From Eledone cirrhosa (lineage: Eukaryota): a stretch of DNA of 64,000 bases. Below are positions 36,204 through 56,000 of the stretch, piece after piece; the first letter of the stretch is position 1; the number at the start of each line of letters is the position of its first letter. The stretch spans positions 32,054,001 to 32,118,000 of the forward strand of contig OZ024760.1 in NCBI GenBank assembly GCA_964016885.1, given 5' to 3'. The notes under the pieces were generated by a model. The model saw only the letters and a list, made by a program, of their open reading frames with translations. It was not told the DNA's origin and searched no databases. Both the position numbers and the translations under genes were made by a program.

Positions 36204-36357
36204 AAACATCGGCGGAGGTGGTGAGAGTAGACCTCAGATCGCTGAAGCTCATGGAGGAGATGATGAAGGACTGTGTCAAGTGGAGAGATTTCTGTGCTGA
36301 AAAGGACCCGTCCCACCCTTGCAAGCAGGGAAAAGTGGATATAAAATGATGATGATG
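36204..36357 (+). mobile_element. 5'-truncated 3' end of an RTE-clade LINE with an (ATG)n tail
   Basis: Translates as TSAEVVRVDLRSLKLMEEMMKDCVKWRD/(frameshift)SVLKRTR, matching the typical RTE ORF C-terminus (KTW.EVV..DL..L.L...M..DR..WR). It is followed by ...gcaagcagggaaaagtggatataaaatgatgatgatg. Confidence 0.8.
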
Positions 36358-36419: not shown

Positions 36420-37290
36420 TACTATATATTAAACTAAATATACTTGAAAACATTTCTTTGTATATATAGATATATACTGTGTGTATATACAGTGCATATA
36501 TATGTGGGTATATACTGTATATATAAGTGTATATATGTGTGTGTATGTACATAGATAAATATGTGTGTGTGTATATTTACGTATATATGTATGTATTTGT
36601 ACGTACATAAGTGCATGTATGTGTGTGTGTGTGTATTTCTATGTAGGTAGGTATATATATATTCATGAATACAAAACTCAAGATTTACAAAAGAAAACTT
36701 GATTTTCTGGTGAACATATATTTCCAAATGAAAATATATACATATGTGTGTGTATATATATATGTATACATATATGCACACACACATATTTATGTATATA
36801 TATATATATGTGTGTGTATATATTAGTGTGTGTATATATTAGTGTGTATATATGTGTGTGTGTGTATATATATATATATGTGTACATATATGCACACACA
36901 TATTTATATATATATATATATGTGTGTGTGTGTATATGTATATACTCCAATCTTGTGTATTCATATATATATATATGTCTTGTGTATTCATGTACGGGAG
37001 TGTGTTTTAATTAAAATATTAATGAAGATCTGAATCTTAAAGGATGTTTGTATTTTTTGTTGGTGTGTGTATATATATATGTGTGTGTGTATATATGCAT
37101 ATATATGTGTGTGTGCATATATGTATACATATATATATACACACACATATGTATATATTTTCATTTGGAAATATATGTTCACCAGAAAATCAAGTTTTCT
37201 TTTGTAAATATTGATATATATATATATATGTGTGTGTGTATGTATATATATATATATATATGTGTGTATATATACATATATATGTGTGTG

Positions 37291-37830: not shown

Positions 37831-38018
37831 TGGTGATCTATGCAATAAACACACCCAGTACACTCTGTAAAGTGGTTGGTGTTAAGAAGGACATCCAACC
37901 GTAGACCCTCCCAACAAAGGGTTGACACCACTTCAGTACTGACTTAATCTATGTAGACCCCGTCTAACCTTTTCTAGCATGGAAAGCAAACCTTAAATGA
38001 TGATGATGATGATGATGA

Positions 38019-38190: not shown

Positions 38191-38809
38191 ATGTATAGTA
38201 CATAGAATAATATACAAATATCATGGAAGTGAATAGTGTATGATGAGTCATGATATACATGTGTGTATGTGTATGGAGGGGGAATATTAGATGTAGTGTT
38301 GTCAAAGGTACAATGGTGTTTAAGTACGTTTTCATCAGACAAAATATAAGATTTGATATGTGACATACCGCTACGGTTTCGATTATTCAATTCCAGTATT
38401 GGCAGTGATTTATTTCACCAACTCTCAACGTTTTTATATCATAAATAATATGATAAACTTAAAGAAGTTATATGTATATATATATGTAAATTAATTTCTG
38501 AAGACAGCATATATATGTGTAGGTATGTATATTCCCTCTGATAGTTTGTAATATTTTGACATAGATCTATATAATATACATACCAACACACATATACATC
38601 CTAGAAACGATCGTAAAATTATGAATTTTTTAATATAAGGAACTTGTTCTTTGTTTTTATTCATTGTTTTTATTAATTTATCTTGACTCTGTTTTCCTAT
38701 GATTTTCATCGGAAATTTTTGAATGCATCTTCTCCCTTCATGATATTTGGATTACATTGAGTTCTTCATACGGATTGGACACTACCGTATATTTTGGTAG
38801 ATTTATCTA

Positions 38810-38811
<2 letters not shown>

Positions 38812-38890
<79 letters not shown>
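38812..38890. repeat. (TA)n microsatellite, left flank of the hairpin element
   Basis: Pure TA run. Confidence 0.97.
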
Positions 38891-38892
<2 letters not shown>

Positions 38893-39178
38893 AAAGGATA
38901 ACAAGGACGATTGGTTACTCCTTCATTACATTTATTGGTTGGTGACGCGCGTTTCGCCACTGATCAGCTCAAGGTTCGATCTGAATCGATCTTACCCGAC
39001 TCTATAATCGACGGACCCTTTAAAATACATTTTAAAGGGTCCCTCGAGCTGCCGATTATAGAGTCGGGTAAGATCGATACAGATCGAACCTTGAGCTGAT
39101 CAGTGACGAAACGCGCGTCACCAACCAATAAATGTAATGAAGGAGTAACCAATCGTTCTTGTTATCCTTTCAATATAT
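38885..39178. mobile_element. Near-perfect 294-bp palindrome (hairpin 1); putative non-autonomous element
   Basis: The 126-bp arms 38885-39010 and 39053-39178 differ at 3 positions. An inner perfect 14-bp stem (39013-39026/39029-39042) closes a 2-nt loop. The palindrome is seen directly; the mobile-element identity is inferred. Confidence 0.7.
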
Positions 39179-39394
39179 TACACTCTGTCTAGCTCTACAC
39201 CTCAACACAGAAGTGAACCTAAACATTGAGTGCTCACCCGGGTGAACCTGCATAACTCCAAGTTACACTCCCTAGATATAGATATAGATATATACCCAGG
39301 AAGTGTAACGTGAAGTTAGTGTAGGTTCCCCCAGGTGAGCACTCAATGTTTAGGTTCACTTCTGTGTTGAGGTGTAGAGCTAGACAGAGTGTAA
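39178..39394. mobile_element. 217-bp palindrome (hairpin 2) abutting hairpin 1
   Basis: Perfect 61-bp arms 39178-39238 and 39334-39394. Imperfect pairing continues inward to ~39273/39298. The sequence is unrelated to hairpin 1. Confidence 0.7.
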
Positions 39395-39414
39395 ATATAA
39401 TCAAATCGTCCTTG

Positions 39415-39417
<3 letters not shown>

Positions 39418-39467
<50 letters not shown>
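39418..39467. repeat. (TA)n microsatellite, right flank of the hairpin element
   Basis: Pure TA run. Confidence 0.97.
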
Positions 39468-40336: not shown

Positions 40337-40341
40337 AGAGA

Positions 40342-40468
40342 GGGGTCTTGAGTCCAGTAAGACAACTTCTCTAGTGCTGGTGGCACGAATAAAACACCCC
40401 AGTCCATGCTCTAAAATGGCACTGGTGTTAGGAAGGGCATCCAACCAGTGTATTAATGCCAAAACAAA
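40342..40468 (+). mobile_element. Internal SINE-like fragment, same family as 37831-38022
   Basis: gctggtggcacgaataaaacacccagt...ggtgttaggaagggcatccaacc aligns by eye with aaacacacccagt...ggtgttaagaaggacatccaacc. Confidence 0.65.
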
Positions 40469-41060: not shown

Positions 41061-44000
41061 GTTAACCACACAGCCATGTCTGTTGCTAACTAAACAGGTT
41101 AACCACACAACCATGTCTGTTGCTAACTAAACACGTTAACCACACGGCCATGTCTGTTGCTAACTAAACACGTTAACCACACTGCCATGTCTGTTGCTAA
41201 CTAAACACGTTAACCACACGGCCATGTCTGTTGCTAACTAAACACGTTAACCACACGGCCATGTCTGTTGCTAACTAAACACGTTAACCACACAGCCATG
41301 TCTGTTGCTAACTAAACATGTTAACCAGACAGCCATGTCTGTTGCTAACTAAACACGTTAACCACACAACCATGTCTGTTGCTAACTAAACACGTTAACC
41401 ACACGGCCATGTCTGTTGCTAACTAAACACGTTAACCAGACAGCCATGTCTGTTGCTAACTAAACACGTTAACCACACAGCCATGTCTGTTGCTAACTAA
41501 ACACGTTAACCACACAGCCATGTCTGTTGCTAACTAAACACGTTAACCACACAGCCATGTTTGTTGCTAACTAAACACGTTAACCACACAGCCATGTCTG
41601 TTGCTAACTAAACACGTTAACCACAGCCCTATCTGTTGCTAACTAAACACGTTAACGACACGTCCATGTCTGATGCTAACTAAACACGTTAACCACACTG
41701 CCATGTCTGTTGCTAACTAAACACGTTAACCACACTGCCATGTCTGTTGCTAACTAAACACGTTAACCAGACAGCCATGTCTCTTGCTAACTAAACATGT
41801 TAACCACACAGCCATGTCTGTTGCTAACTAAACACGTTAACCACACTGCCATGTCTGTTGCTAACTAAACACGTTAACCACACTGCCATGTCTGTTGCTA
41901 ACTAAACACGTGAACCACACTGCCATGTCTGTTGCTAACTAAACACGTTAACCACACTGCCATGTCTGTTGCTAACTAAACACGTTAACCAGACAGCCAT
42001 GTCTGTTGCTAAATAAACACGTTAACCACACTGCTATGTCTGTTGCTAACTAAACATGTTAACCACACAGCCATGTCTGTTGCTAACTAAACACGTTAAC
42101 CACACTGCTATGTCTGTTGCTAACTAAACACGTTAACCACACTGCCATGTCTGTTGCTAACTAAACACGTTAACCACACTGCCATGTCTGTTGCTAACTA
42201 AACACGTTAACCACACTGCCATGTCTGTTGCTAACTAAACACGTTAACCACACTGCCATGTCTGTTGCTAACTAAACACGTTAACCAGACAGCCCTATCT
42301 GTTACTAATTAAACACGTTAACCAGACAGCCCTGTCTGTTGCTAACTAAACACGTTAACCACACATCCATGTCTGTTACTAATTAAACACGTTAACCACA
42401 CTGCCATGTCTGTTACTAATTAAACACGTTAACCAGACAGCCCTGTCTGTTGCTAACTAAACACGTTAACGACACAGCCATCTCTGATGCTAACTAAACA
42501 CGTTAACCAGACAGCCATGTCTGTTGCTAACTAAACACGTTAACCACACTGCCATGTCTGTTGCTAACTAAACACGTTAACCACACTGCCATGTCTGTTG
42601 CTAACTAAACACGTTAACCACACTGCCATGTCTGTTGCTAACTAAACACGTTAACCACACAGCCATGTCTGTTGCTAACTAAACACGTTAACCACACAGC
42701 CATGTCTGTTACTAACTAAACACGTTAACCACACAGCCATGCCTGTTGCTAACTAAACACGTTAACCGCACTGCTATGTCTGTTGCTAACTAAACATGTT
42801 AACCACACTGCCATGTCTGTTGCTAACTAAACACGTTAACCACACAGCCATGTTTGTTGCTAACTAAACACGTTAACCACACTGCTATGCCTGTTGCTAA
42901 CTAAACACGTTAACCACACTGCCATGTCTGTTGCTAACTAAACATGTTAACCACACGGCCATGTCTGTTGCTAACTAAACACGTTAACCACACAGCCATG
43001 TCTGTTACTAATTAAACACGTTAACCAGACAGCCATATCTGTTGCTAACTAAACACGTTAACCACACTGCCATGTCTGTTGCTAACTAAACACGTTAACC
43101 ACACTGCCATGTCTGATGCTAACTAAACACGTTAACCACACTGCCATGTATGTTACTAACTAAACACGTTAACCACACAGCCACGACTGTTGCTAACTAA
43201 ACACGTTAATCAGACAGCCATGTCTGTTGCTAACTAAACACGTTAACCAGACAGCCATGTCTGTTGCTAACTAAACACGTTAACCACACTGCTATGCCTG
43301 TTGCTAACTAAACACGTTAACCACACTGCTATGCCTGTTGCTAACTAAACACGTTAACCACACAGCCATGTCTGTTGCTAACTAAACACGTTAACCACAC
43401 AGCCATGTCTGTTACTAACTAAACACGTTAACCACACAGCCATGCCTGTTGCTAACTAAACACGTTAACCACACTGCTATGTCTGTTGCTAACTAAACAT
43501 GTTAACCACACTGCCATGTCTGTTGCTAACTAAACACGTTAACCACACAGCCATGTTTGTTGGTAACTAAACACGTTAACCACACTGCTATGCCTGTTGC
43601 TAACTAAACACGTTAACCACACTGCCATGTCTGTTGCTAACTAAACATGTTAACCACACGGCCATGTCTGTTGCTAACTAAACACGTTAACCACACAGCC
43701 ATGTCTGTTACTAATTAAACACGTTAACCAGACAGCCATGTCTGTTGCTAACTAAACACGTTAACCACACTGCCATGTCTGTTGCTAACTAAACACGTTA
43801 ACCACACTGCCATGTCTGATGCTAACTAAACACGTTAACCACACTGCCATGTATGTTACTAACTAAACACGTTAACCACACAGCCACGACTGTTGCTAAC
43901 TAAACACGTTAATCAGACAGCCATGTCTGTTGCTAACTAAACACGTTTACCAGACAGCCATGTCTGTTGCTAACTAAACACGTTAACCACACTGCTATGC

Positions 44001-47000
44001 CTGTTGCTAACTAAACACGTTAACCACACTGCTATGCCTGTTGCTAACTAAACACGTTAACCACACTGCCATGTCTGTTGCTAACTAAACTCGTTAACCA
44101 CACTGCCATGTCTGTTGCTAACTAAACACGTTAACCACACAGCCATGTCTGTTGCTAACTAAACACGTTAACCACACAGCCATGTCTGTTGCTAACTAAA
44201 CACGTTAACCACACTGCTATGCCTGTTGCTAACTAAACACGTTAACCACACAGCCATGTCTGTTGCTAACTAAACATGTTAACCACACGGCCATGTCTGT
44301 TGCTAACTAAACACGTTAACCACACAGCCATGTCTGTTACTAATTAAACACGTTAACCAGACAGCCCTGTCTGTTGCTAACTAAACACGTTAACGACAGG
44401 GCCATGTCTGATGCTAACTAAACACGTTAACCAGACAGCCATGTCTGTTGCTAACTAAACACGTTAACCACACTGCCATGTCTGTTGCTAACTAAACACG
44501 TTAACCACACTGCCATGCCTGTTGCTAACTAAACACGTTAACCACACTGCCACGCCTGTTGCTAACTAAACACGTTAACCACACTGCCATGTCTGTTGCT
44601 AACTAAACACGTTAACCACACTGCCATGTCTGTTGCTAACTAAACACGTTAACCACACTGCCATGCCTGTTGCTAACTAAACACGTTGACCACAGAGCCA
44701 CGACTGTTGCTAACTAAACACGTTAACCACACTGCCATGTCTGTTGCTAACTAAACACGTTAACCACACTGCCATGTCTGTTGCTAACTAAACACGTTAA
44801 CCACACTGCCATGTCTGTTGCTAACTAAACACGTTAACCACACTGCCATGCCTGTTGCTAACTAAACACGTTAACCACACAGCCACGACTGTTGCTAACT
44901 AAACACGTTAACCACACAGCCATGTCTGTTGCTAACTAAACACGTTAACCACACTGCCATGTCTGTTGCTAACTAAACACGTTAACCACACTGCCATGTC
45001 TGTTGCTAACTAAACACGTTAACCACACTGCCATGTCTGTTGCTAACTAAACACGTTAACCACACAGCTATGTCTGTTACTAACTACACACGTTAACCAC
45101 ACAGCCATGCCTGTTGCTAACTAAACACGTTAACCACACTGCTATGCCTGTTGCTAACTAAACACGTTAACCACACAGCCATGTCTGTTGCTAACTAAAC
45201 ACGTTAACCACACAGCCATGTCTGTTGCTAACTAAACACGTTAACCACACTGCCATGTCTGTTGCTAACTAAACACGTTAACCACACTGCCATGTCTGTT
45301 GCTAACTAAACACGTTAACCAGACAGCCCTGTCTGTTGCTAACTAAACACGTTAACCAGACAGCCATGTCTGTTGCTAACTAAACACGTTAACCACACTG
45401 CTATGTCTGTTGCTAACTAAACATGTTAACCACACAGCCATGTCTGTTGCTAACTAAACACGTTAACCACACTGCCATGTCTGTTGCTAACTAAACACGT
45501 TAACCACACTGCCATGTCTGTTGCTAACTAAACACGTTAACCACACTGCCATGTCTGTTGCTAACTAAACACGTTAACCAGACAGCCATGTCTGTTGCTA
45601 AATAAACACGTTAACCACACTGCTATGTCTGTTGCTAACTAAACATGTTAACCACACAGCCATGTCTGTTGCTAACTAAACACGTTAACCACACTGCTAT
45701 GTCTGTTGCTAACTAAACACGTTAACCACACTGCCATGTCTGTTGCTAACTAAACACGTTAACCACACTGCCATGTCTGTTGCTAACTAAACACGTTAAC
45801 CACACTGCCATGTCTGTTGCTAACTAAACACGTTAACCACACTGCCATGTCTGTTGCTAACTAAACACGTTAACCAGACAGCCCTATCTGTTACTAATTA
45901 AACACGTTAACCAGACAGCCCTGTCTGTTGCTAACTAAACACGTTAACCACACATCCATGTCTGTTACTAATTAAACACGTTAACCACACTGCCATGTCT
46001 GTTACTAATTAAACACGTTAACCAGACAGCCCTGTCTGTTGCTAACTAAACACGTTAACGACACAGCCATCTCTGATGCTAACTAAACACGTTAACCAGA
46101 CAGCCATGTCTGTTGCTAACTAAACACGTTAACCACACTGCCATGTCTGTTGCTAACTAAACACGTTAACCACACTGCCATGTCTGTTGCTAACTAAACA
46201 CGTTAACCACACTGCCATGTCTGTTGCTAACTAAACACGTTAACCACACAGCCATGTCTGTTGCTAACTAAACACGTTAACCACACAGCCATGTCTGTTA
46301 CTAACTAAACACGTTAACCACACAGCCATGCCTGTTGCTAACTAAACACGTTAACCGCACTGCTATGTCTGTTGCTAACTAAACATGTTAACCACACTGC
46401 CATGTCTGTTGCTAACTAAACACGTTAACCACACAGCCATGTTTGTTGCTAACTAAACACGTTAACCACACTGCTATGCCTGTTGCTAACTAAACACGTT
46501 AACCACACTGCCATGTCTGTTGCTAACTAAACATGTTAACCACACGGCCATGTCTGTTGCTAACTAAACACGTTAACCACACAGCCATGTCTGTTACTAA
46601 TTAAACACGTTAACCAGACAGCCATATCTGTTGCTAACTAAACACGTTAACCACACTGCCATGTCTGTTGCTAACTAAACACGTTAACCACACTGCCATG
46701 TCTGATGCTAACTAAACACGTTAACCACACTGCCATGTATGTTACTAACTAAACACGTTAACCACACAGCCACGACTGTTGCTAACTAAACACGTTAATC
46801 AGACAGCCATGTCTGTTGCTAACTAAACACGTTAACCAGACAGCCATGTCTGTTGCTAACTAAACACGTTAACCACACTGCTATGCCTGTTGCTAACTAA
46901 ACACGTTAACCACACTGCTATGCCTGTTGCTAACTAAACACGTTAACCACACAGCCATGTCTGTTGCTAACTAAACACGTTAACCACACAGCCATGTCTG

Positions 47001-50000
47001 TTACTAACTAAACACGTTAACCACACAGCCATGCCTGTTGCTAACTAAACACGTTAACCACACTGCTATGTCTGTTGCTAACTAAACATGTTAACCACAC
47101 TGCCATGTCTGTTGCTAACTAAACACGTTAACCACACAGCCATGTTTGTTGGTAACTAAACACGTTAACCACACTGCTATGCCTGTTGCTAACTAAACAC
47201 GTTAACCACACTGCCATGTCTGTTGCTAACTAAACATGTTAACCACACGGCCATGTCTGTTGCTAACTAAACACGTTAACCACACAGCCATGTCTGTTAC
47301 TAATTAAACACGTTAACCAGACAGCCATGTCTGTTGCTAACTAAACACGTTAACCACACTGCCATGTCTGTTGCTAACTAAACACGTTAACCACACTGCC
47401 ATGTCTGATGCTAACTAAACACGTTAACCACACTGCCATGTATGTTACTAACTAAACACGTTAACCACACAGCCACGACTGTTGCTAACTAAACACGTTA
47501 ATCAGACAGCCATGTCTGTTGCTAACTAAACACGTTTACCAGACAGCCATGTCTGTTGCTAACTAAACACGTTAACCACACTGCTATGCCTGTTGCTAAC
47601 TAAACACGTTAACCACACTGCTATGCCTGTTGCTAACTAAACACGTTAACCACACTGCCATGTCTGTTGCTAACTAAACTCGTTAACCACACTGCCATGT
47701 CTGTTGCTAACTAAACACGTTAACCACACAGCCATGTCTGTTGCTAACTAAACACGTTAACCACACAGCCATGTCTGTTGCTAACTAAACACGTTAACCA
47801 CACTGCTATGCCTGTTGCTAACTAAACACGTTAACCACACAGCCATGTCTGTTGCTAACTAAACATGTTAACCACACGGCCATGTCTGTTGCTAACTAAA
47901 CACGTTAACCACACAGCCATGTCTGTTACTAATTAAACACGTTAACCAGACAGCCCTGTCTGTTGCTAACTAAACACGTTAACGACAGGGCCATGTCTGA
48001 TGCTAACTAAACACGTTAACCAGACAGCCATGTCTGTTGCTAACTAAACACGTTAACCACACTGCCATGTCTGTTGCTAACTAAACACGTTAACCACACT
48101 GCCATGCCTGTTGCTAACTAAACACGTTAACCACACTGCCACGCCTGTTGCTAACTAAACACGTTAACCACACTGCCATGTCTGTTGCTAACTAAACACG
48201 TTAACCACACTGCCATGTCTGTTGCTAACTAAACACGTTAACCACACTGCCATGCCTGTTGCTAACTAAACACGTTGACCACAGAGCCACGACTGTTGCT
48301 AACTAAACACGTTAACCACACTGCCATGTCTGTTGCTAACTAAACACGTTAACCACACTGCCATGTCTGTTGCTAACTAAACACGTTAACCACACTGCCA
48401 TGTCTGTTGCTAACTAAACACGTTAACCACACTGCCATGCCTGTTGCTAACTAAACACGTTAACCACACAGCCACGACTGTTGCTAACTAAACACGTTAA
48501 CCACACAGCCATGTCTGTTGCTAACTAAACACGTTAACCACACTGCCATGTCTGTTGCTAACTAAACACGTTAACCACACTGCCATGTCTGTTGCTAACT
48601 AAACACGTTAACCACACTGCCATGTCTGTTGCTAACTAAACACGTTAACCACACAGCTATGTCTGTTACTAACTACACACGTTAACCACACAGCCATGCC
48701 TGTTGCTAACTAAACACGTTAACCACACTGCTATGCCTGTTGCTAACTAAACACGTTAACCACACAGCCATGTCTGTTGCTAACTAAACACGTTAACCAC
48801 ACAGCCATGTCTGTTGCTAACTAAACACGTTAACCACACTGCCATGTCTGTTGCTAACTAAACACGTTAACCACACTGCCATGTCTGTTGCTAACTAAAC
48901 ACGTTAACCAGACAGCCCTGTCTGTTGCTAACTAAACACGTTAACCAGACAGCCATGTCTGTTGCTAACTAAACACGTTAACCACACTGCTATGTCTGTT
49001 GCTAACTAAACATGTTAACCACACAGCCATGTCTGTTGCTAACTAAACACGTTAACCACACTGCCATGTCTGTTGCTAACTAAACACGTTAACCACACTG
49101 CCATGTCTGTTGCTAACTAAACACGTTAACCACACTGCCATGTCTGTTGCTAACTAAACACGTTAACCACACTGCCATGTCTGTTGCTAACTAAACACGT
49201 TAACCAGACAGCCCTGTCTGTTACTAATTAAACACGTTAACCAGACAGCCCTGTCTGTTGCTAACTAAACACGTTAACCACACATCCATGTCTGTTACTA
49301 ACTAAACACTTTAACCACACTGCCATGTCTGTTGCTAACTAAACACGTTAACCACACTGCCATGTCTGTTGCTAACTAAACACGTTAACCACACAGCCAT
49401 GTCTGTTGCTAACTAAACACGTTAAACACACAGCCATGTCTGTTACTAACTAAACACGTTAACCACACAGCCATGCCTGTTGCTAACTAAACACGTTAAC
49501 CACACTGCTATGTCTGTTGCTAACTAAACATGTTAACCACACTGCCATGTCTGTTGCTAACTAAACACGTTAACCACACAGCCATGTCTGTTGCTAACTA
49601 AACACGTTAACCACACTGCTATGCCTGTTGCTAACTAAACAAGTTAACCACACTGCCATGTCTGTTGCTAACTAAACATGTTAACCACACGGCCATGTCT
49701 GTTGCTAACTAAACACGTTAACCACACAGCCATGTCTGTTACTAATTAAACACGTTAACCAGACAGCCATGTCTGTTGCTAACTAAACACGTTAACCACA
49801 CTGCCATGTCTGTTGCTAACTAAACACGTTAACCACACTGCCATGTCTGATGCTAACTAAACACGTTAACCACACTGCCATGTATGTTACTAACTAAACA
49901 CGTTAACCACACAGCCACGACTGTTGCTAACTAAACACGTTAACCACACAGCCATGTCTGTTACTAACTAAACACGTTAACCACACAGCCATGCCTGTTG

Positions 50001-53000
50001 CTAACTAAACACGTTAACCACACTGCTATGTCTGTTGCTAACTAAACATGTTAACCACACTGCCATGTCTGTTGCTAACTAAACACGTTAACCACACAGC
50101 CATGTTTGTTGCTAACTAAACACGTTAACCACACTGCTATGCCTGTTGCTAACTAAACACGTTAACCACACTGCCATGTCTGTTGCTAACTAAACATGTT
50201 AACCACACGGCCATGTCTGTTGCTAACTAAACACGTTAACCACACAGCCATGTCTGTTACTAATTAAACGCGTTAACCAGACAGCCATGTCTGTTGCTAA
50301 CTAAACACGTTAACCACACTGCCATGTCTGTTGCTAACTAAACACGTTAACCACACTGCCATGTCTGATGCTAACTAAACACGTTAACCACACTGCCATG
50401 TATGTTACTAACTAAACACGTTAACCACAAAGCCACGACTGTTGCTAACTAAACACGTTAATCAGACAGCCATGTCTGTTGCTAACTAAACACGTTAACC
50501 AGACAGCCATGTCTGTTGCTAACTAAACACGTTAACCACACTGCTATGCCTGTTGCTAACTAAACACGTTAACCACACTGCTATGCCTGTTGCTAAATAA
50601 ACACGTTAACCACACAGCCATGTCTGTTGCTAACTAAACACGTTAACCACACAGCCATGTCTGTTACTAACTAAACACGTTAACCACACAGCCATGCCTG
50701 TTGCTAACTAAACACGTTAACCACACTGCTATGTCTGTTGCTAACTAAACATGTTAACCACACTGCCATGTCTGTTGCTAACTAAACACGTTAACCACAC
50801 TGCTATGCCTGTTGCTAACTAAACACGTTAACCACACTGCCATGTCTGTTGCTAACTAAACATGTTAACCACACGGCCATGTCTGTTGCTAACTAAACAC
50901 GTTAGCCACACAGCCATGTCTGTTACTAATTAAACACGTTAACCAGACAGCCATGTCTGTTGCTAACTAAACACGTTAACCACACTGCCATGTCTGTTGC
51001 TAACTAAACACGTTAACCACACTGCCATGTCTGATGCTAACTAAACACGTTAACCACACTGCCATGTATGTTACTAACTAAACACGTTAACCACACAGCC
51101 ACAACTGTTGCTAACTAAACACGTTAATCAGACAGCCATGTCTGTTGCTAACTAAACACGTTTACCAGACAGCCATGTCTGTTGCTAACTAAACACGTTA
51201 ACCACACTGCTATGCCTGTTGCTAACTAAACACGTTAACGACACTGCTATGCCTGTTGCTAACTAAACACGTTAACCACACTGCCATGTCTGTTGCTAAC
51301 TAAACTCGTTAACCACACTGCCATGTCTGTTGCTAACTAAACACGTTAACCACACAGCCATGTCTGTTGCTAACTAAGCACGTTAACCACACAGCCATGT
51401 CTGTTGCTAACTAAACACGTTAACCACACTGCTATGCCTGTTGCTAACTAAACACGTTAACCACACAGCCATGTCTGTTGCTAACTAAACATGTTAACCA
51501 CACGGCCATGTCTGTTGCTAACTAAACACGTTAACCACACAGCCATGTCTGTTACTAATTAAACACGTTAACCAGACAGCCCTGTCTGTTGCTAACTAAA
51601 CACGTTAACGACACGGCCATGTCTGATGCTAACTAAACACGTCAACCAGACAGCCATGTCTGTTGCTAACTAAACACGTTAACCACACTGCCATGTCTGT
51701 TGCTAACTAAACATGTTAACCACACTGCCATGCCTGTTGCTAACTAAACACGTTAACCACACTGCCACGCCTGTTGCTAACTAAACACGTTAACCACACT
51801 GCCATGTCTGTTGCTAACTAAACACGTTAACCACACTGCCATGTCTGTTGCTAACTAAACACGTTAACCACACTGCCATGCCTGTTGCTAACTAAACACG
51901 TTGACCACAGAGCCACGACTGTTGCTAACTATACACGTTAACCACACTGCCATGTCTGTTGCTAACTAAACACGTTAACCACACTGCCATGTATGTTGCT
52001 AACTAAACACGTTAACCACACAGCCATGTCTGTTGCTAACTAAACACGTTAACCACACTGCCATGCCTGTTGCTAACTAAACACGTTAACCACACAGCCA
52101 CGACTGTTGCTAACTAAACACGTTAACCACACAGCCATGTCTGTTGCTAACTAAACACGTTAACCACACTGCCATGTCTGTTGCTAACTAAACACGTTAA
52201 CCACACTGCCATGTCTGTTGCTAACTAAACACGTTAACCACACTGCCATGTCTGTTGCTAACTAAACACGTTAACCACACAGCTATGTCTGTTACTAACT
52301 AAACACGTTAACCACACAGCCATGCCTGTTGCTAACTAAACACGTTAACCACACTGCTATGCCTGTTGCTAACTAAACACGTTAACCACACGGCCATGTT
52401 TGTTGCTAACTAAACACGTTAACCACACAGCCATGTCTGTTGCTAACTAAACACGTTAACCACACTGCCATGTCTGTTGCTAACTAAACACGTTAACCAC
52501 ACTGCCATGTCTGTTGCTAACTAAACACGTTAACCACACTGCCATGTCTGTTGCTAACTAAACACGTTAACCAGACAGCCATGTCTGTTGCTAACTAAAC
52601 ACGTTAACCACACTGCTATGTCTGTTGCTAACTAAACACGTTAACCACACTGCCATGTCTGTTGCTAACTAAACACGTTAACCACACTGCCATGTCTGTT
52701 GCTAACTAAACACGTTAACCACACTGCCATGTCTGTTGCTAACTAAACACGTTAACCACACTGCCATGTCTGTTGCTAACTAAACACGTTAACCAGACAG
52801 CCCTGTCTGTTACTAATTAAACACGTTAACCAGACAGCCCTGTCTGTTGCTAACTATACACGTTAACCACACATCCATGTCTGTTACTAATTAAACACGT
52901 TAACCACACTGCCATGTCTGTTACTAATTAAACACGTTAACCAGACAGCCCTGTCTGTTGCTAACTAAACACGTTAACGACACAGCCATGTCTGATGCTA

Positions 53001-56000
53001 ACTAAACACGTTAACCAGACAGCCATGTCTGTTGCTAACTAAACACTTTAACCACACTGCCATGTCTGTTGCTAACTAAACACTTTAACCACACTGCCAT
53101 GTCTGTTGCTAACTAAACACGTTAACCACACTGCCATGTCTGTTGCTAACTAAACACGTTAACCACACAGCCATGTCTGTTGCTAACTAAACACGTTAAC
53201 CACACAGCCATGTCTGTTACTAACTAAACACGTTAACCACACAGCCGTGCCTGTTGCTAACTAAACACGTTAACCACACAGCCATGTCTGTTGCTAACTA
53301 AACACGTTAACCACACAGCCATGTCTGTTACTAACTAAACACGTTAACCACACTGCTATGCCTGTTGCTAACTAAACACGTTAACCACACTGCCATGTCT
53401 GTTGCTAACTAAACATGTTAACCACACGGCCATGTCTGTTGCTAACTAAACACGTTAACCACACAGCCATGTCTGTTACTAATTAAACACGTTAACCAGA
53501 CAGCCATGTCTGTTGCTAACTAAACACGTTAACCACACTGCCATGTCTGTTGCTAACTAAACACTTTAACCACACTGCCATGTCTGTTGCTAACTAAACA
53601 CGTTAACCACACTGCCATGTCTGTTGCTAACTAAACACGTTAACCACACAGCCATGTCTGTTGCTAACTAAACACGTTAACCACACAGCCATGTCTGTTA
53701 CTAACTAAACACGTTAACCACACAGCCATGCCTGTTGCTAACTAAACACGTTAACCACACAGCCATGTCTGTTGCTAACTAAACACGTTAACCACACAGC
53801 CATGTCTGTTACTAACTAAACACGTTAACCAGACAGCCATGTCTGTTGCTAACTAAACACGTTAACCACACTGCCATGTCTGTTGCTAACTAAACACGTT
53901 AACCACACTGCCATGTCTGATGCTAACTAAACACGTTATCCACACTGCCATGTATGTTACTAACTAAACACGTTAACCACACAGCCACGACTGTTGCTAA
54001 CTAAACACGTTAATCAGACAGCCATGTCTGTTGCTAACTAAACACGTTAACCAGACAGCCATGTCTGTTGCTAACTAAACACGTTAACCACACTGCCATG
54101 CCTGTTGCTAACTAAACACGTTAACCACACTGCCACGCCTGTTGCTAACTAAACACGTTAACCACACTGCCATGTCTGTTGCTAACTAAACACGTTAACC
54201 ACACTGCCATGTCTGTTGCTAACTAAACACGTTAACCACACTGTCACGACTGTTGCTAACTAAACACGTTAACCACACTGCCATGTCTGTTGCTAACTAA
54301 ACACGTTAACCACACTGCCATGCCTGTTGCTAACTAAACACGTTAACCACACTGCCTTGTCTGTTGCTAACTAAACACGTTAACCGCACTGCTATGTCTG
54401 TTGCTAACTAAACACGTTAACCACACTGCCATGCCTGTTGCTAACTAAACACGTGAACCACACAGCCACGACTGTTGCTAACTAAACACGTTAACCACAC
54501 AGCCATGTCTGTTGCTAACTAAACACGTTAACCACACTGCCATGTCTGTTGCTAACTAAACACGTTAACCACACTGCCATGTCTGTTGCTAACTAAACAC
54601 GTTAACCACACTGCCATGTCTGTTGCTAACTAAACACGTTAACCACATAGCCATGTCTGTTACTAACTAAACACGTTAACCACACGTCCATGCCTGTTGC
54701 TAATTAAACACGTTAACCAGACAGCCCTGTCTGTTGCTAACTAAACACGTTAACCACACTGCCATGTCTGTTGCTAACTAAACACGTTAACCACACTGCC
54801 ATGTCTGATGCTAACTAAACACGTTATCCACACTGCCATGTATGTTACTAACTAAACACGTTAACCACACAGCCACGACTGTTGCTAACTAAACACGTTA
54901 ATCAGACAGCCATGTCTGTTGCTAACTAAACACGTTAACCAGACAGCCATGTCTGTTGCTAACTAAACACGTTAACCACACTGCCATGCCTGTTGCTAAC
55001 TAAACACGTTAACGACACTGCCACGCCTGTTGCTAACTAAACACGTTAACCACACTGCCATGTCTGTTGCTAACTAAACACGTTAACCACACTGCCATGT
55101 CTGTTGCTAACTAAACACGTTAACCACACTGTCACGACTGTTGCTAACTAAACACGTTAACCACACTGCCATGTCTGTTGCTAACTAAACACGTTAACCA
55201 CACTGCCATGCCTGTTGCTAACTAAACACGTTAACCACACTGCCTTGTCTGTTGCTAACTAAACACGTTAACCGCACTGCTATGTCTGTTGCTAACTAAA
55301 CACGTTAACCACACTGCCATGCCTGTTGCTAACTAAACACGTTAACCACACAGCCACGACTGTTGCTAACTAAACACGTTAACCACACAGCCATGTCTGT
55401 TGCTAACTAAACACGTTAACCACACTGCCATGTCTGTTGCTAACTAAACACGTTAACCACACTGCCATGTCTGTTGCTAACTAAACACGTTAACCACACT
55501 GCCATGTCTGTTGCTAACTAAACACGTTAACCACATAGCCATGTCTGTTACTAACTAAACACGTTAACCACACGTCCATGCCTGTTGCTAATTAAACACG
55601 TTAACCAAACAGCCCTGTCTGTTGCTAACTAAACACGTTAACCACACATCCATGTCTGTTACTAATTAAACACGTTAACCACACTGCCATGTCTGTTACT
55701 AATTAAACACGTTAACCAGACAGCCCTGTCTGTTGCTAACTAAACACGTTAACGACACAGCCATGTCTGATGCTAACTAAACACGTTAACCAGACAGCCA
55801 TGTCTGTTGCTAAATAAACACGTTAACCACACTGCCATGTCTGTTGCTAACTAAACACTTTAACCACACTGCCATGTCTGTTGCTAACTAAACACGTTAA
55901 CCACACTGCCATGTCTGTTGCTAACTAAACACGTTAACCACACAGCCATGTCTGTTGCTAACTAAACACGTTAACCACACAGCCATGTCTGTTACTAACT

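Follow-up and report, generated by a model that had tools for sequence, protein, structure and literature searches.

Four alternating pieces of an abundant hammerhead repeat, likely the 3′ end of a Penelope-like element, form a double hairpin between (TA)n tracts

The window, that is, the whole 64-kb stretch of DNA that was analysed, consists mostly of satellite DNA. TRF found a 48-bp unit repeated 750 times at 1–35969 and a 37-bp unit repeated 455 times at 41061–57877; these two satellites have opposite GC skew. Further arrays, (TAC)n/(ACC)n over about 2.9 kb and (CTGTCTCT)n, lie in 58440–61323 and 62695–64000. The microsatellite make-up may resemble that of octopus genomes, a likeness to which no conclusion here is tied. 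The hairpin locus described here sits in a 5-kb microsatellite-rich island between the 48-bp and 37-bp satellites, with (TA)n on both sides: an unstranded tract of 43.5 copies on the left (38804–38890), likely the insertion target, and one of 25 copies on the right (39418–39467; both from TRF). Another long inverted repeat in the window (36634–36822 and 37070–37258; 189 nt, 83%, 247 nt apart) has a non-microsatellite core of about 50 nt and is unrelated to the hairpin element. A 47-aa frame at 36206–36349, which stops just upstream of an (ATG)n run and has no Pfam hit, is presumably reminiscent of the 3′ end of a LINE, and two short, non-repetitive segments (37840–37995 and 40340–40460) that are alike by eye look like pieces of one interspersed repeat. 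No tRNA genes were found.

As the first-pass annotation had reported, two long palindromes lie between the (TA)n runs. Hairpin 1 has arms of 126 nt each (38885–39010 and 39053–39178) with three mismatched pairs (38906/39157, 38957/39106 and 38984/39079). TA repeat accounts for 6 of the 126 nt of its arm, and pairing resumes beyond an 8-nt indel, up to a loop of 2–4 nt at about 39026–39029. The arms of hairpin 2 (39178–39238 and 39334–39394) are perfect over 61 bp, base 39178 being common to both hairpins, and the stem extends inward for about 40 bp, matching in 30 of 40 columns, around a 22-nt, unstranded TA-like spacer (39273–39294) that forms the loop. The folding z-scores of the locus are −50.9 as DNA and −44.2 as RNA, and none of 100 shuffles folded as well. 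At the outer edges, 39404–39415 is indeed the exact reverse complement of 38901–38912 (12 bp), from which an alternative fold with paired outer ends had been proposed. When this pairing is forced, it costs 26 kcal/mol as RNA and 20 kcal/mol as DNA, so the alternative fold is not competitive.

The family to which the hairpins belong was studied in the contigs of four public runs (X1, X2, X4 and X6 of six, X3 and X5 being left out) at 80% likeness; X1 and X2 are the same sample. Contigs matching 547 bases at the locus numbered 6,862 in X1, 6,823 in X2, 26 in X4 (organism B) and 7 in X6 (organism C); those of X4 and X6 may represent traces of DNA from this host or a relative of it and hence are not counted as cross-species conservation. 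Junction 39178 is bridged by contigs of all four runs (among the pieces listed, 7 of 8 for X1, 8 of 8 for X2, 2 of 8 for X4 and 1 of 7 for X6), one bridging X1 piece having a depth of 520. In one repeat, therefore, hairpin 1's right arm leads directly into the left arm of hairpin 2; the junction is not unique to this locus, and the description of hairpin 2 as unrelated to hairpin 1 was mistaken. Summed X1 depth is 85,000–259,000 per bin over the hairpin 1 arms (38900–38975 and 39071–39146), and in the left arm of hairpin 2 it reaches 114,000. It falls to 55–61 in the middle of hairpin 1 (39018–39025) and to 144 at 39403, which makes both of these joints nearly private to the locus. Summed depth is not copy number; set against the single-contig depths listed, about 3–15, it suggests a family of the order of ten thousand copies.

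The hairpins are thus four back-to-back parts of one very abundant, non-coding repeat of about 250 bp. Read with the ribozyme strand as sense, the order is (TA)n, S1 (antisense), S2 (sense, with tail), the TA-like spacer, S3 (antisense tail), S4 (short sense end) and (TA)n. S2 (39026–39277, plus strand) is the longest family piece here; it carries the hammerhead, AATAAA, the short end and the tail, contigs bridge it over 39071–39280, and its right end is blurred, at about 39277–39286. Its tail, tail B (39179–39277, plus strand), is about 100 nt long, forms the left arm of hairpin 2 and is A+C-rich (A or C at 63 of the 103 bases of 39178–39280); its depth is about 40% of that of the hairpin 1 arm (arm A). 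S1 (38885–39026, minus strand), the left arm of hairpin 1, is a 5′-truncated copy whose sequence starts close upstream of the hammerhead and reaches the short 3′ end; it is the reverse complement of S2, from which it departs by the three mismatches within the outer 126 nt and by a deletion of 8 nt. S3 (39295–39401, minus strand) is an antisense copy of tail B and forms the right arm of hairpin 2; its outer 61 bp are identical to S2, and its inner part is a different family variant, the differences matching variants in contig loose ends. The spacer thus lies between two long 3′ ends. S4 (39398–39419, plus strand) comprises the last 20 nt or so before the short 3′ end (joints 39143→39398, 39101→39402, 39422→39174 and 39420→39174). 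It represents another family variant than S1 and S2, one whose end is a normal subfamily end according to joints in contigs; an alternative reading of it is a 14-bp micro-inversion flanked by TAAT and ATTA. S1+S2 and S3+S4 are each arranged head-to-head; of the two outer ends of each pair, one is short and the other carries a tail.

The supposed outer terminal repeat is the family's short 3′ end, present at both outer edges. That the rightmost copy matches the left-arm allele had been taken as evidence for a single unit; the C allele at 39157 accounts for 7,400 of 8,388 depth units (88%) and is the family majority, so the match carries no information. The loose ends before 38901 are of TA type in X4 and mixed AT-rich in X1, X2 and X6, and the right end abutting TA is a regular family terminus, as the X4 contig attests. 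The model of one 530-bp composite with outer terminal repeats and two alternative folds draws on the 12-bp outer match and on the shared middle junction, and the latter part stands, as junction 39178 recurs in other copies. Depth in the arms exceeds that at the centre and right end by three to four orders of magnitude, so the composite is not the repeated unit, and with the energetic cost of the outer fold and a terminal allele that is simply the majority one, we rate this model very improbable. Two TA-targeting foldback or MITE-type DNA transposons lying side by side would account for the long near-perfect arms and TA flanks, but the contig evidence largely refutes them and we rate them very improbable: the junction between the hairpins is the family's normal state (the annotation had rightly doubted two chance MITE insertions), hairpin 1 has a nearly private centre, copies are inverted at varying points, and a ribozyme motif and AATAAA lie in the arms. 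An assembly or read fold-back chimera of an abundant repeat is likewise very improbable. None of the contigs listed covers the full stretch, the best reaching 0.68 of the sampled words; this proves nothing, since a high-copy palindrome is where short contigs would be expected to break off. The three substitutions and 8-nt indel between the hairpin 1 arms speak against a chimera, as had been pointed out, and so do the 10 of 40 inner columns that differ in hairpin 2 and the similar inversions in other copies.

A type I hammerhead motif was located in S2 at 39038–39122 (plus strand) from the Rfam match to its 3′ half, the in-register core in contig loose ends and a constrained fold. Rfam Hammerhead_1 scored 22.2 bits (E 0.002 for 146 nt, 3′ half aligned) in S2 and 19.7 bits at 38938–38973 in S1, both under the gathering score of 34, and GAAACGCGCGTC is present twice in the window against 0.01 expected. 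In the constrained fold, helix I consists of 3 bp, GGU/ACC (39038–39040 with 39120–39122). The core position (39041–39047) reads CCCUCGA in S2 and CUGAYGA in other copies; it is followed by a helix II domain of 60 nt (39048–39107), predicted to be branched and closed by a G-C pair (G10.1–C11.1), by GAAA (39108–39111) and by a palindromic helix III, AC-GCGC-GU (39111–39118), whose 2 bp close in the constrained fold. The hammerhead register places the predicted cut, at a GUC site, after C39119, and AATAAA (39127–39132) follows 8 nt past it. Both free and constrained folds predict, beyond an internal loop, a distal helix I of 7 bp (39026–39032 with 39130–39136, spanning 39026–39136); few contigs cover its 5′ strand (depth 168 at 39027), and at the family level this helix is weakly supported. 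On the minus strand, S1 retains a hammerhead remnant (38941–39017) with the core CCGUCGA (39014–39008) and its own AATAAA (38931–38936), and its 8-nt deletion takes away the 5′ base of helix II.

In other copies, CUGAYGA followed by G lies in exact register with 39041–39048, seen in X1 loose ends that precede 39054 in 53 contigs and 39060 in 116, as well as in one X2 joint, with G at 39043 in 99% of the depth. A rough estimate puts the chance of finding core, G and helix I within 90 nt at about 5e-5. The family, judged from its sequence, carries a type I hammerhead motif with core, G10.1–C11.1, GAAA, helix III, a UH site and helix I, for which self-cleavage is predicted. Among the reads listed across the core, three of six are intact and three have one change (CCGA twice, CUGACAA once), and given this proportion many family copies may be inactive. 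At the present locus the core is broken in both arms, by CCCUCGA in S2 and by CCGUCGA plus the deletion in S1, neither of which fits CUGANGA, and with both cores broken the two hammerheads are likely dead. Changes of A6 and G8 lower or abolish activity in other hammerheads (PMC3088659; PMC11167929), and the hammerhead topology of the damaged S2 costs 13 kcal/mol over the free fold (−15.7 versus −29.0).

Two sets of candidates were rejected: the nearer core that Rfam aligned, CUGAUCA (39096–39102), in which G8 is C, helix I is unpaired and the following bases vary in the family, and the Rfam microRNA matches, all of which were below the gathering score and fell on hairpins or simple repeats. 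The X1 and X2 loose ends before 39060 and 38942 belong to at least two diverged subfamilies with differing 5′ strands of helices I and II; these differ after the cut site yet keep AATAAA, and 116–123 contigs run further upstream. One X4 loose end, before 39036, has a 255-nt upstream extension with a pyrimidine-rich, splice-acceptor-like AG right before helix I. The acceptor of the D. virilis Penelope intron likewise lies just upstream of helix I (PMC4209133), a resemblance that, coming from a single contig, is a hint.

We think it probable that the four alternating pieces at the locus stem from two neighbouring insertions of one hammerhead repeat into (TA)n, and that this repeat is the 3′-terminal portion, pseudo-LTR and tail, of a Penelope-like retroelement (PLE). 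Hammerhead, head-to-head inversion, one-sided tail and (TA)n target together make up the published PLE signature, and on these grounds the repeat would work like a PLE end. Insertions of PLEs are described as 5′-truncated, often with an inverted copy at the 5′ end and a tail of 30–40 nt at one end only, and a (TA)n bias is reported for the Neptune, Naiad and Hydra clades (PMC8557442). Among inverted forms of PLEs, those with head-to-head junctions occur most often (PMC3846280). The PLE hammerhead is marked by a palindromic helix III and a larger helix II (PMC4209133), and insertions tend to adjoin existing copies (PMC6765202). In work with a purified PLE protein, AT-rich DNA was nicked and extended on both strands, the tail being delimited by two internal RT start sites (PMC11167929). 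Penelope repeats are known to be abundant in cephalopods (PMC8967140). The one-sided extension in both the S1+S2 and the S3+S4 pair is about 100 nt long, compared with 30–40 nt in described PLEs. The annotation had suggested an undescribed TA-targeting non-autonomous element; the (TA)n setting bears out part of this, but the hammerhead and AATAAA, which had been missed, point to a PLE.

The PLE assignment, which we regard as likely, rests on these structural features; Pfam and a protein search linked no RT/GIY-YIG ORF to the locus. Pfam gave 0 families in the four frames tested; three of these are from the element, in agreement with the earlier statement that it encodes no protein, and one is that at 36206–36349. 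In a protein search with a 65-aa frame at 38902–39096, none of 68 candidates passed, which is weak evidence.

The favoured course of events would have four steps. A PLE RT/GIY-YIG protein supplied from elsewhere would nick both (TA)n strands and prime two cDNAs on the element RNA, which would start at two distances from the ribozyme cut site, the short start lying about 45–58 nt and the long one about 155 nt downstream of it. The two truncated cDNAs would then join head-to-head, giving a palindrome with a one-sided tail (S1+S2, hairpin 1). A second, more truncated event from another subfamily (S3+S4) would land beside the first, so that the tails face each other across the TA-like spacer as hairpin 2. 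Arm-to-arm copying would later render the outer 61 bp of hairpin 2 identical. What is left is likely a dead remnant without a function of its own.

Joints in other copies show how common such rearrangements are. Of 63 joints, 15 were listed: nine are head-to-head, four are strand switches without a stated direction, one is tail-to-tail and one is colinear. Inversions thus make up 14 of these 15, and breakpoints vary between copies; one joint, 39003→39060, folds back symmetrically, its mirror positions placing the centre elsewhere. None of the 15 is head-to-tail, the partial tandem arrangement that gives PLEs their direct pLTRs, and this counts against the PLE reading. The joints were taken from contigs at 80% likeness, and four of the nine head-to-head joints have fewer than 30 letters on the shorter side.

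Whether the locus records two events or one depends on the distribution of variants. In a single complex integration of the same family, the RT complex would have folded back and switched templates repeatedly, copying S3 and S1 from S2. Over the outer 61 bp, the hairpin 2 arms share family-rare alleles (4% at 39227; product 0.002 over six listed sites, ignoring linkage), so two independent insertions need a later homogenising step. Intramolecular template switching at quasi-palindromes produces this pattern, in which the outer stem is perfect and the inner one diverged. In further support of a single integration, S1 and S2 have two core changes and the longer junction variant in common, S4 could be the micro-inversion mentioned above, and self-priming has been put forward for PLE palindromes (PMC3846280). 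Against this, 10 of the 40 inner columns of hairpin 2 are mismatched, several of them at family-polymorphic positions, S4 bears the end of the other subfamily, and a fold-back copy would be identical nearest the loop. As S4, and in S3 both the inner part and the outer junction, carry other variants than S1 and S2, two templates are favoured, and we consider a single integration unlikely. Taking the two-insertion reading and its one-event variant together, we hold with good confidence that the locus originated from a PLE-type hammerhead repeat.

A non-LTR retrozyme or SINE-like hammerhead element, spread through circular or self-cleaved RNA by a helper that need not be a PLE and inverted secondarily, is a further reading to which we give a small share of credence. 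The unit of about 250 bp, non-coding and with a type I hammerhead, is within the 220–350 bp range of retrozyme monomers (PMC7229834), and many family copies seem to begin just upstream of helix I, where depth drops from 20,432 in bin 39033–39051 to 1,416 in bin 39014–39032. Longer upstream extensions exist, however (116 X1 contigs with a median of 76 loose letters before 39060). Retrozymes form head-to-tail tandem arrays, whereas head-to-tail joints number 0 of the 15 listed (of 63) and 0 of 12 in a further listing (38 more rows), with none at the locus, and a 2026 preprint treats retrozymes as PLE derivatives (bioRxiv 10.64898/2026.07.22.740005).

Under the PLE reading, the element is likely of a known kind, with an unusually large predicted ribozyme arm and a tail of about 100 nt. 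No description of the family was found in the literature searched; Repbase, Dfam, subscription papers and the supplements of PMC4209133 and of the preprint were outside its scope and may hold one. Exact-pattern scans of metagenomes, viral contigs and prokaryote genomes, collections not expected to contain the host, gave 0 loci. The core search of PMC8557442 used a spacer of 7–17 nt between the core halves; the 60 nt found here exceed this, and the score is under the Rfam gathering score, which suggests that such ribozymes are undercounted in animal genomes. More tentatively, the family could consist of non-autonomous "solo pseudo-LTR" units of about 250 nt, each starting at a fixed point just upstream of an active hammerhead with a 60-nt branched helix II, present as some ten thousand head-to-head palindromes with one short and one ~100-nt-tailed end. 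If true, the family would be a large group of animal ribozymes that standard descriptors miss, and its insertions would document, across a whole genome, PLE integration from two strands and two start sites. With thousands of insertions, varied inversion points and two 3′ ends, counts of end types could test the in vitro PLE integration model (PMC11167929). If transcribed, the palindromes would presumably yield long double-stranded RNA.

Among known systems, MITE and foldback DNA transposons have long inverted arms in a TA context. They differ from the present family, which has no fixed family-wide terminal inverted repeats and no constant centre, and whose inversion points vary. Endonuclease-positive (EN+) PLEs with a (TA)n preference (Hydra and Neptune; Naiad for the target only) resemble it in their (TA)n target and, for Hydra and Neptune, in a type I hammerhead about 50–160 nt from the 3′ end and an inverted 5′-truncated head-to-head copy with a one-ended tail; the family differs in that no ORF was seen here and the tail is about 100 nt rather than 30–40. 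Penelope-13_HM is listed with hammerheads on both strands and with an inverted copy attached to it (supplement of PMC8557442). Six probes from the hammerhead and tail gave no related match in the available Naiad, Chlamys and Hydra consensus files. The animal hammerheads tabulated in PMC8557442 have a short helix II hairpin of less than about 30 nt, compared with 60 nt, predicted to be branched, in this family.

Poseidon PAc of Anolis, studied in vitro, is like the locus in having two 3′ ends downstream of the hammerhead and an AT-rich target, and both strands are primed; its downstream region is A+C-rich, a feature shared by the tail described here (PMC11167929). The PAc ORF begins in helix II and the RT start sites lie 111–118 nt into it (PMC11167929), whereas the family here has no start codon or ORF downstream and its two ends are about 100 nt apart. 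Non-LTR retrozymes have a short non-coding unit, a type I hammerhead, a palindromic helix III and high copy number, as here (PMC7229834; bioRxiv 10.64898/2026.07.22.740005), but they are arranged as head-to-tail arrays, while inversions dominate the joints listed for this family. The non-canonical hammerheads of the PLE-X elements of Selaginella come near in the size of helix II, which is long (about 48–53 nt, counted from the table in PMC8557442), two of these plant motifs being the only entries there to come close to 50 nt; these elements are endonuclease-less, target 28S rDNA and occur in a plant, whereas the present family, with a helix II predicted to be branched, lies in an animal-like genome and has TA as its target.
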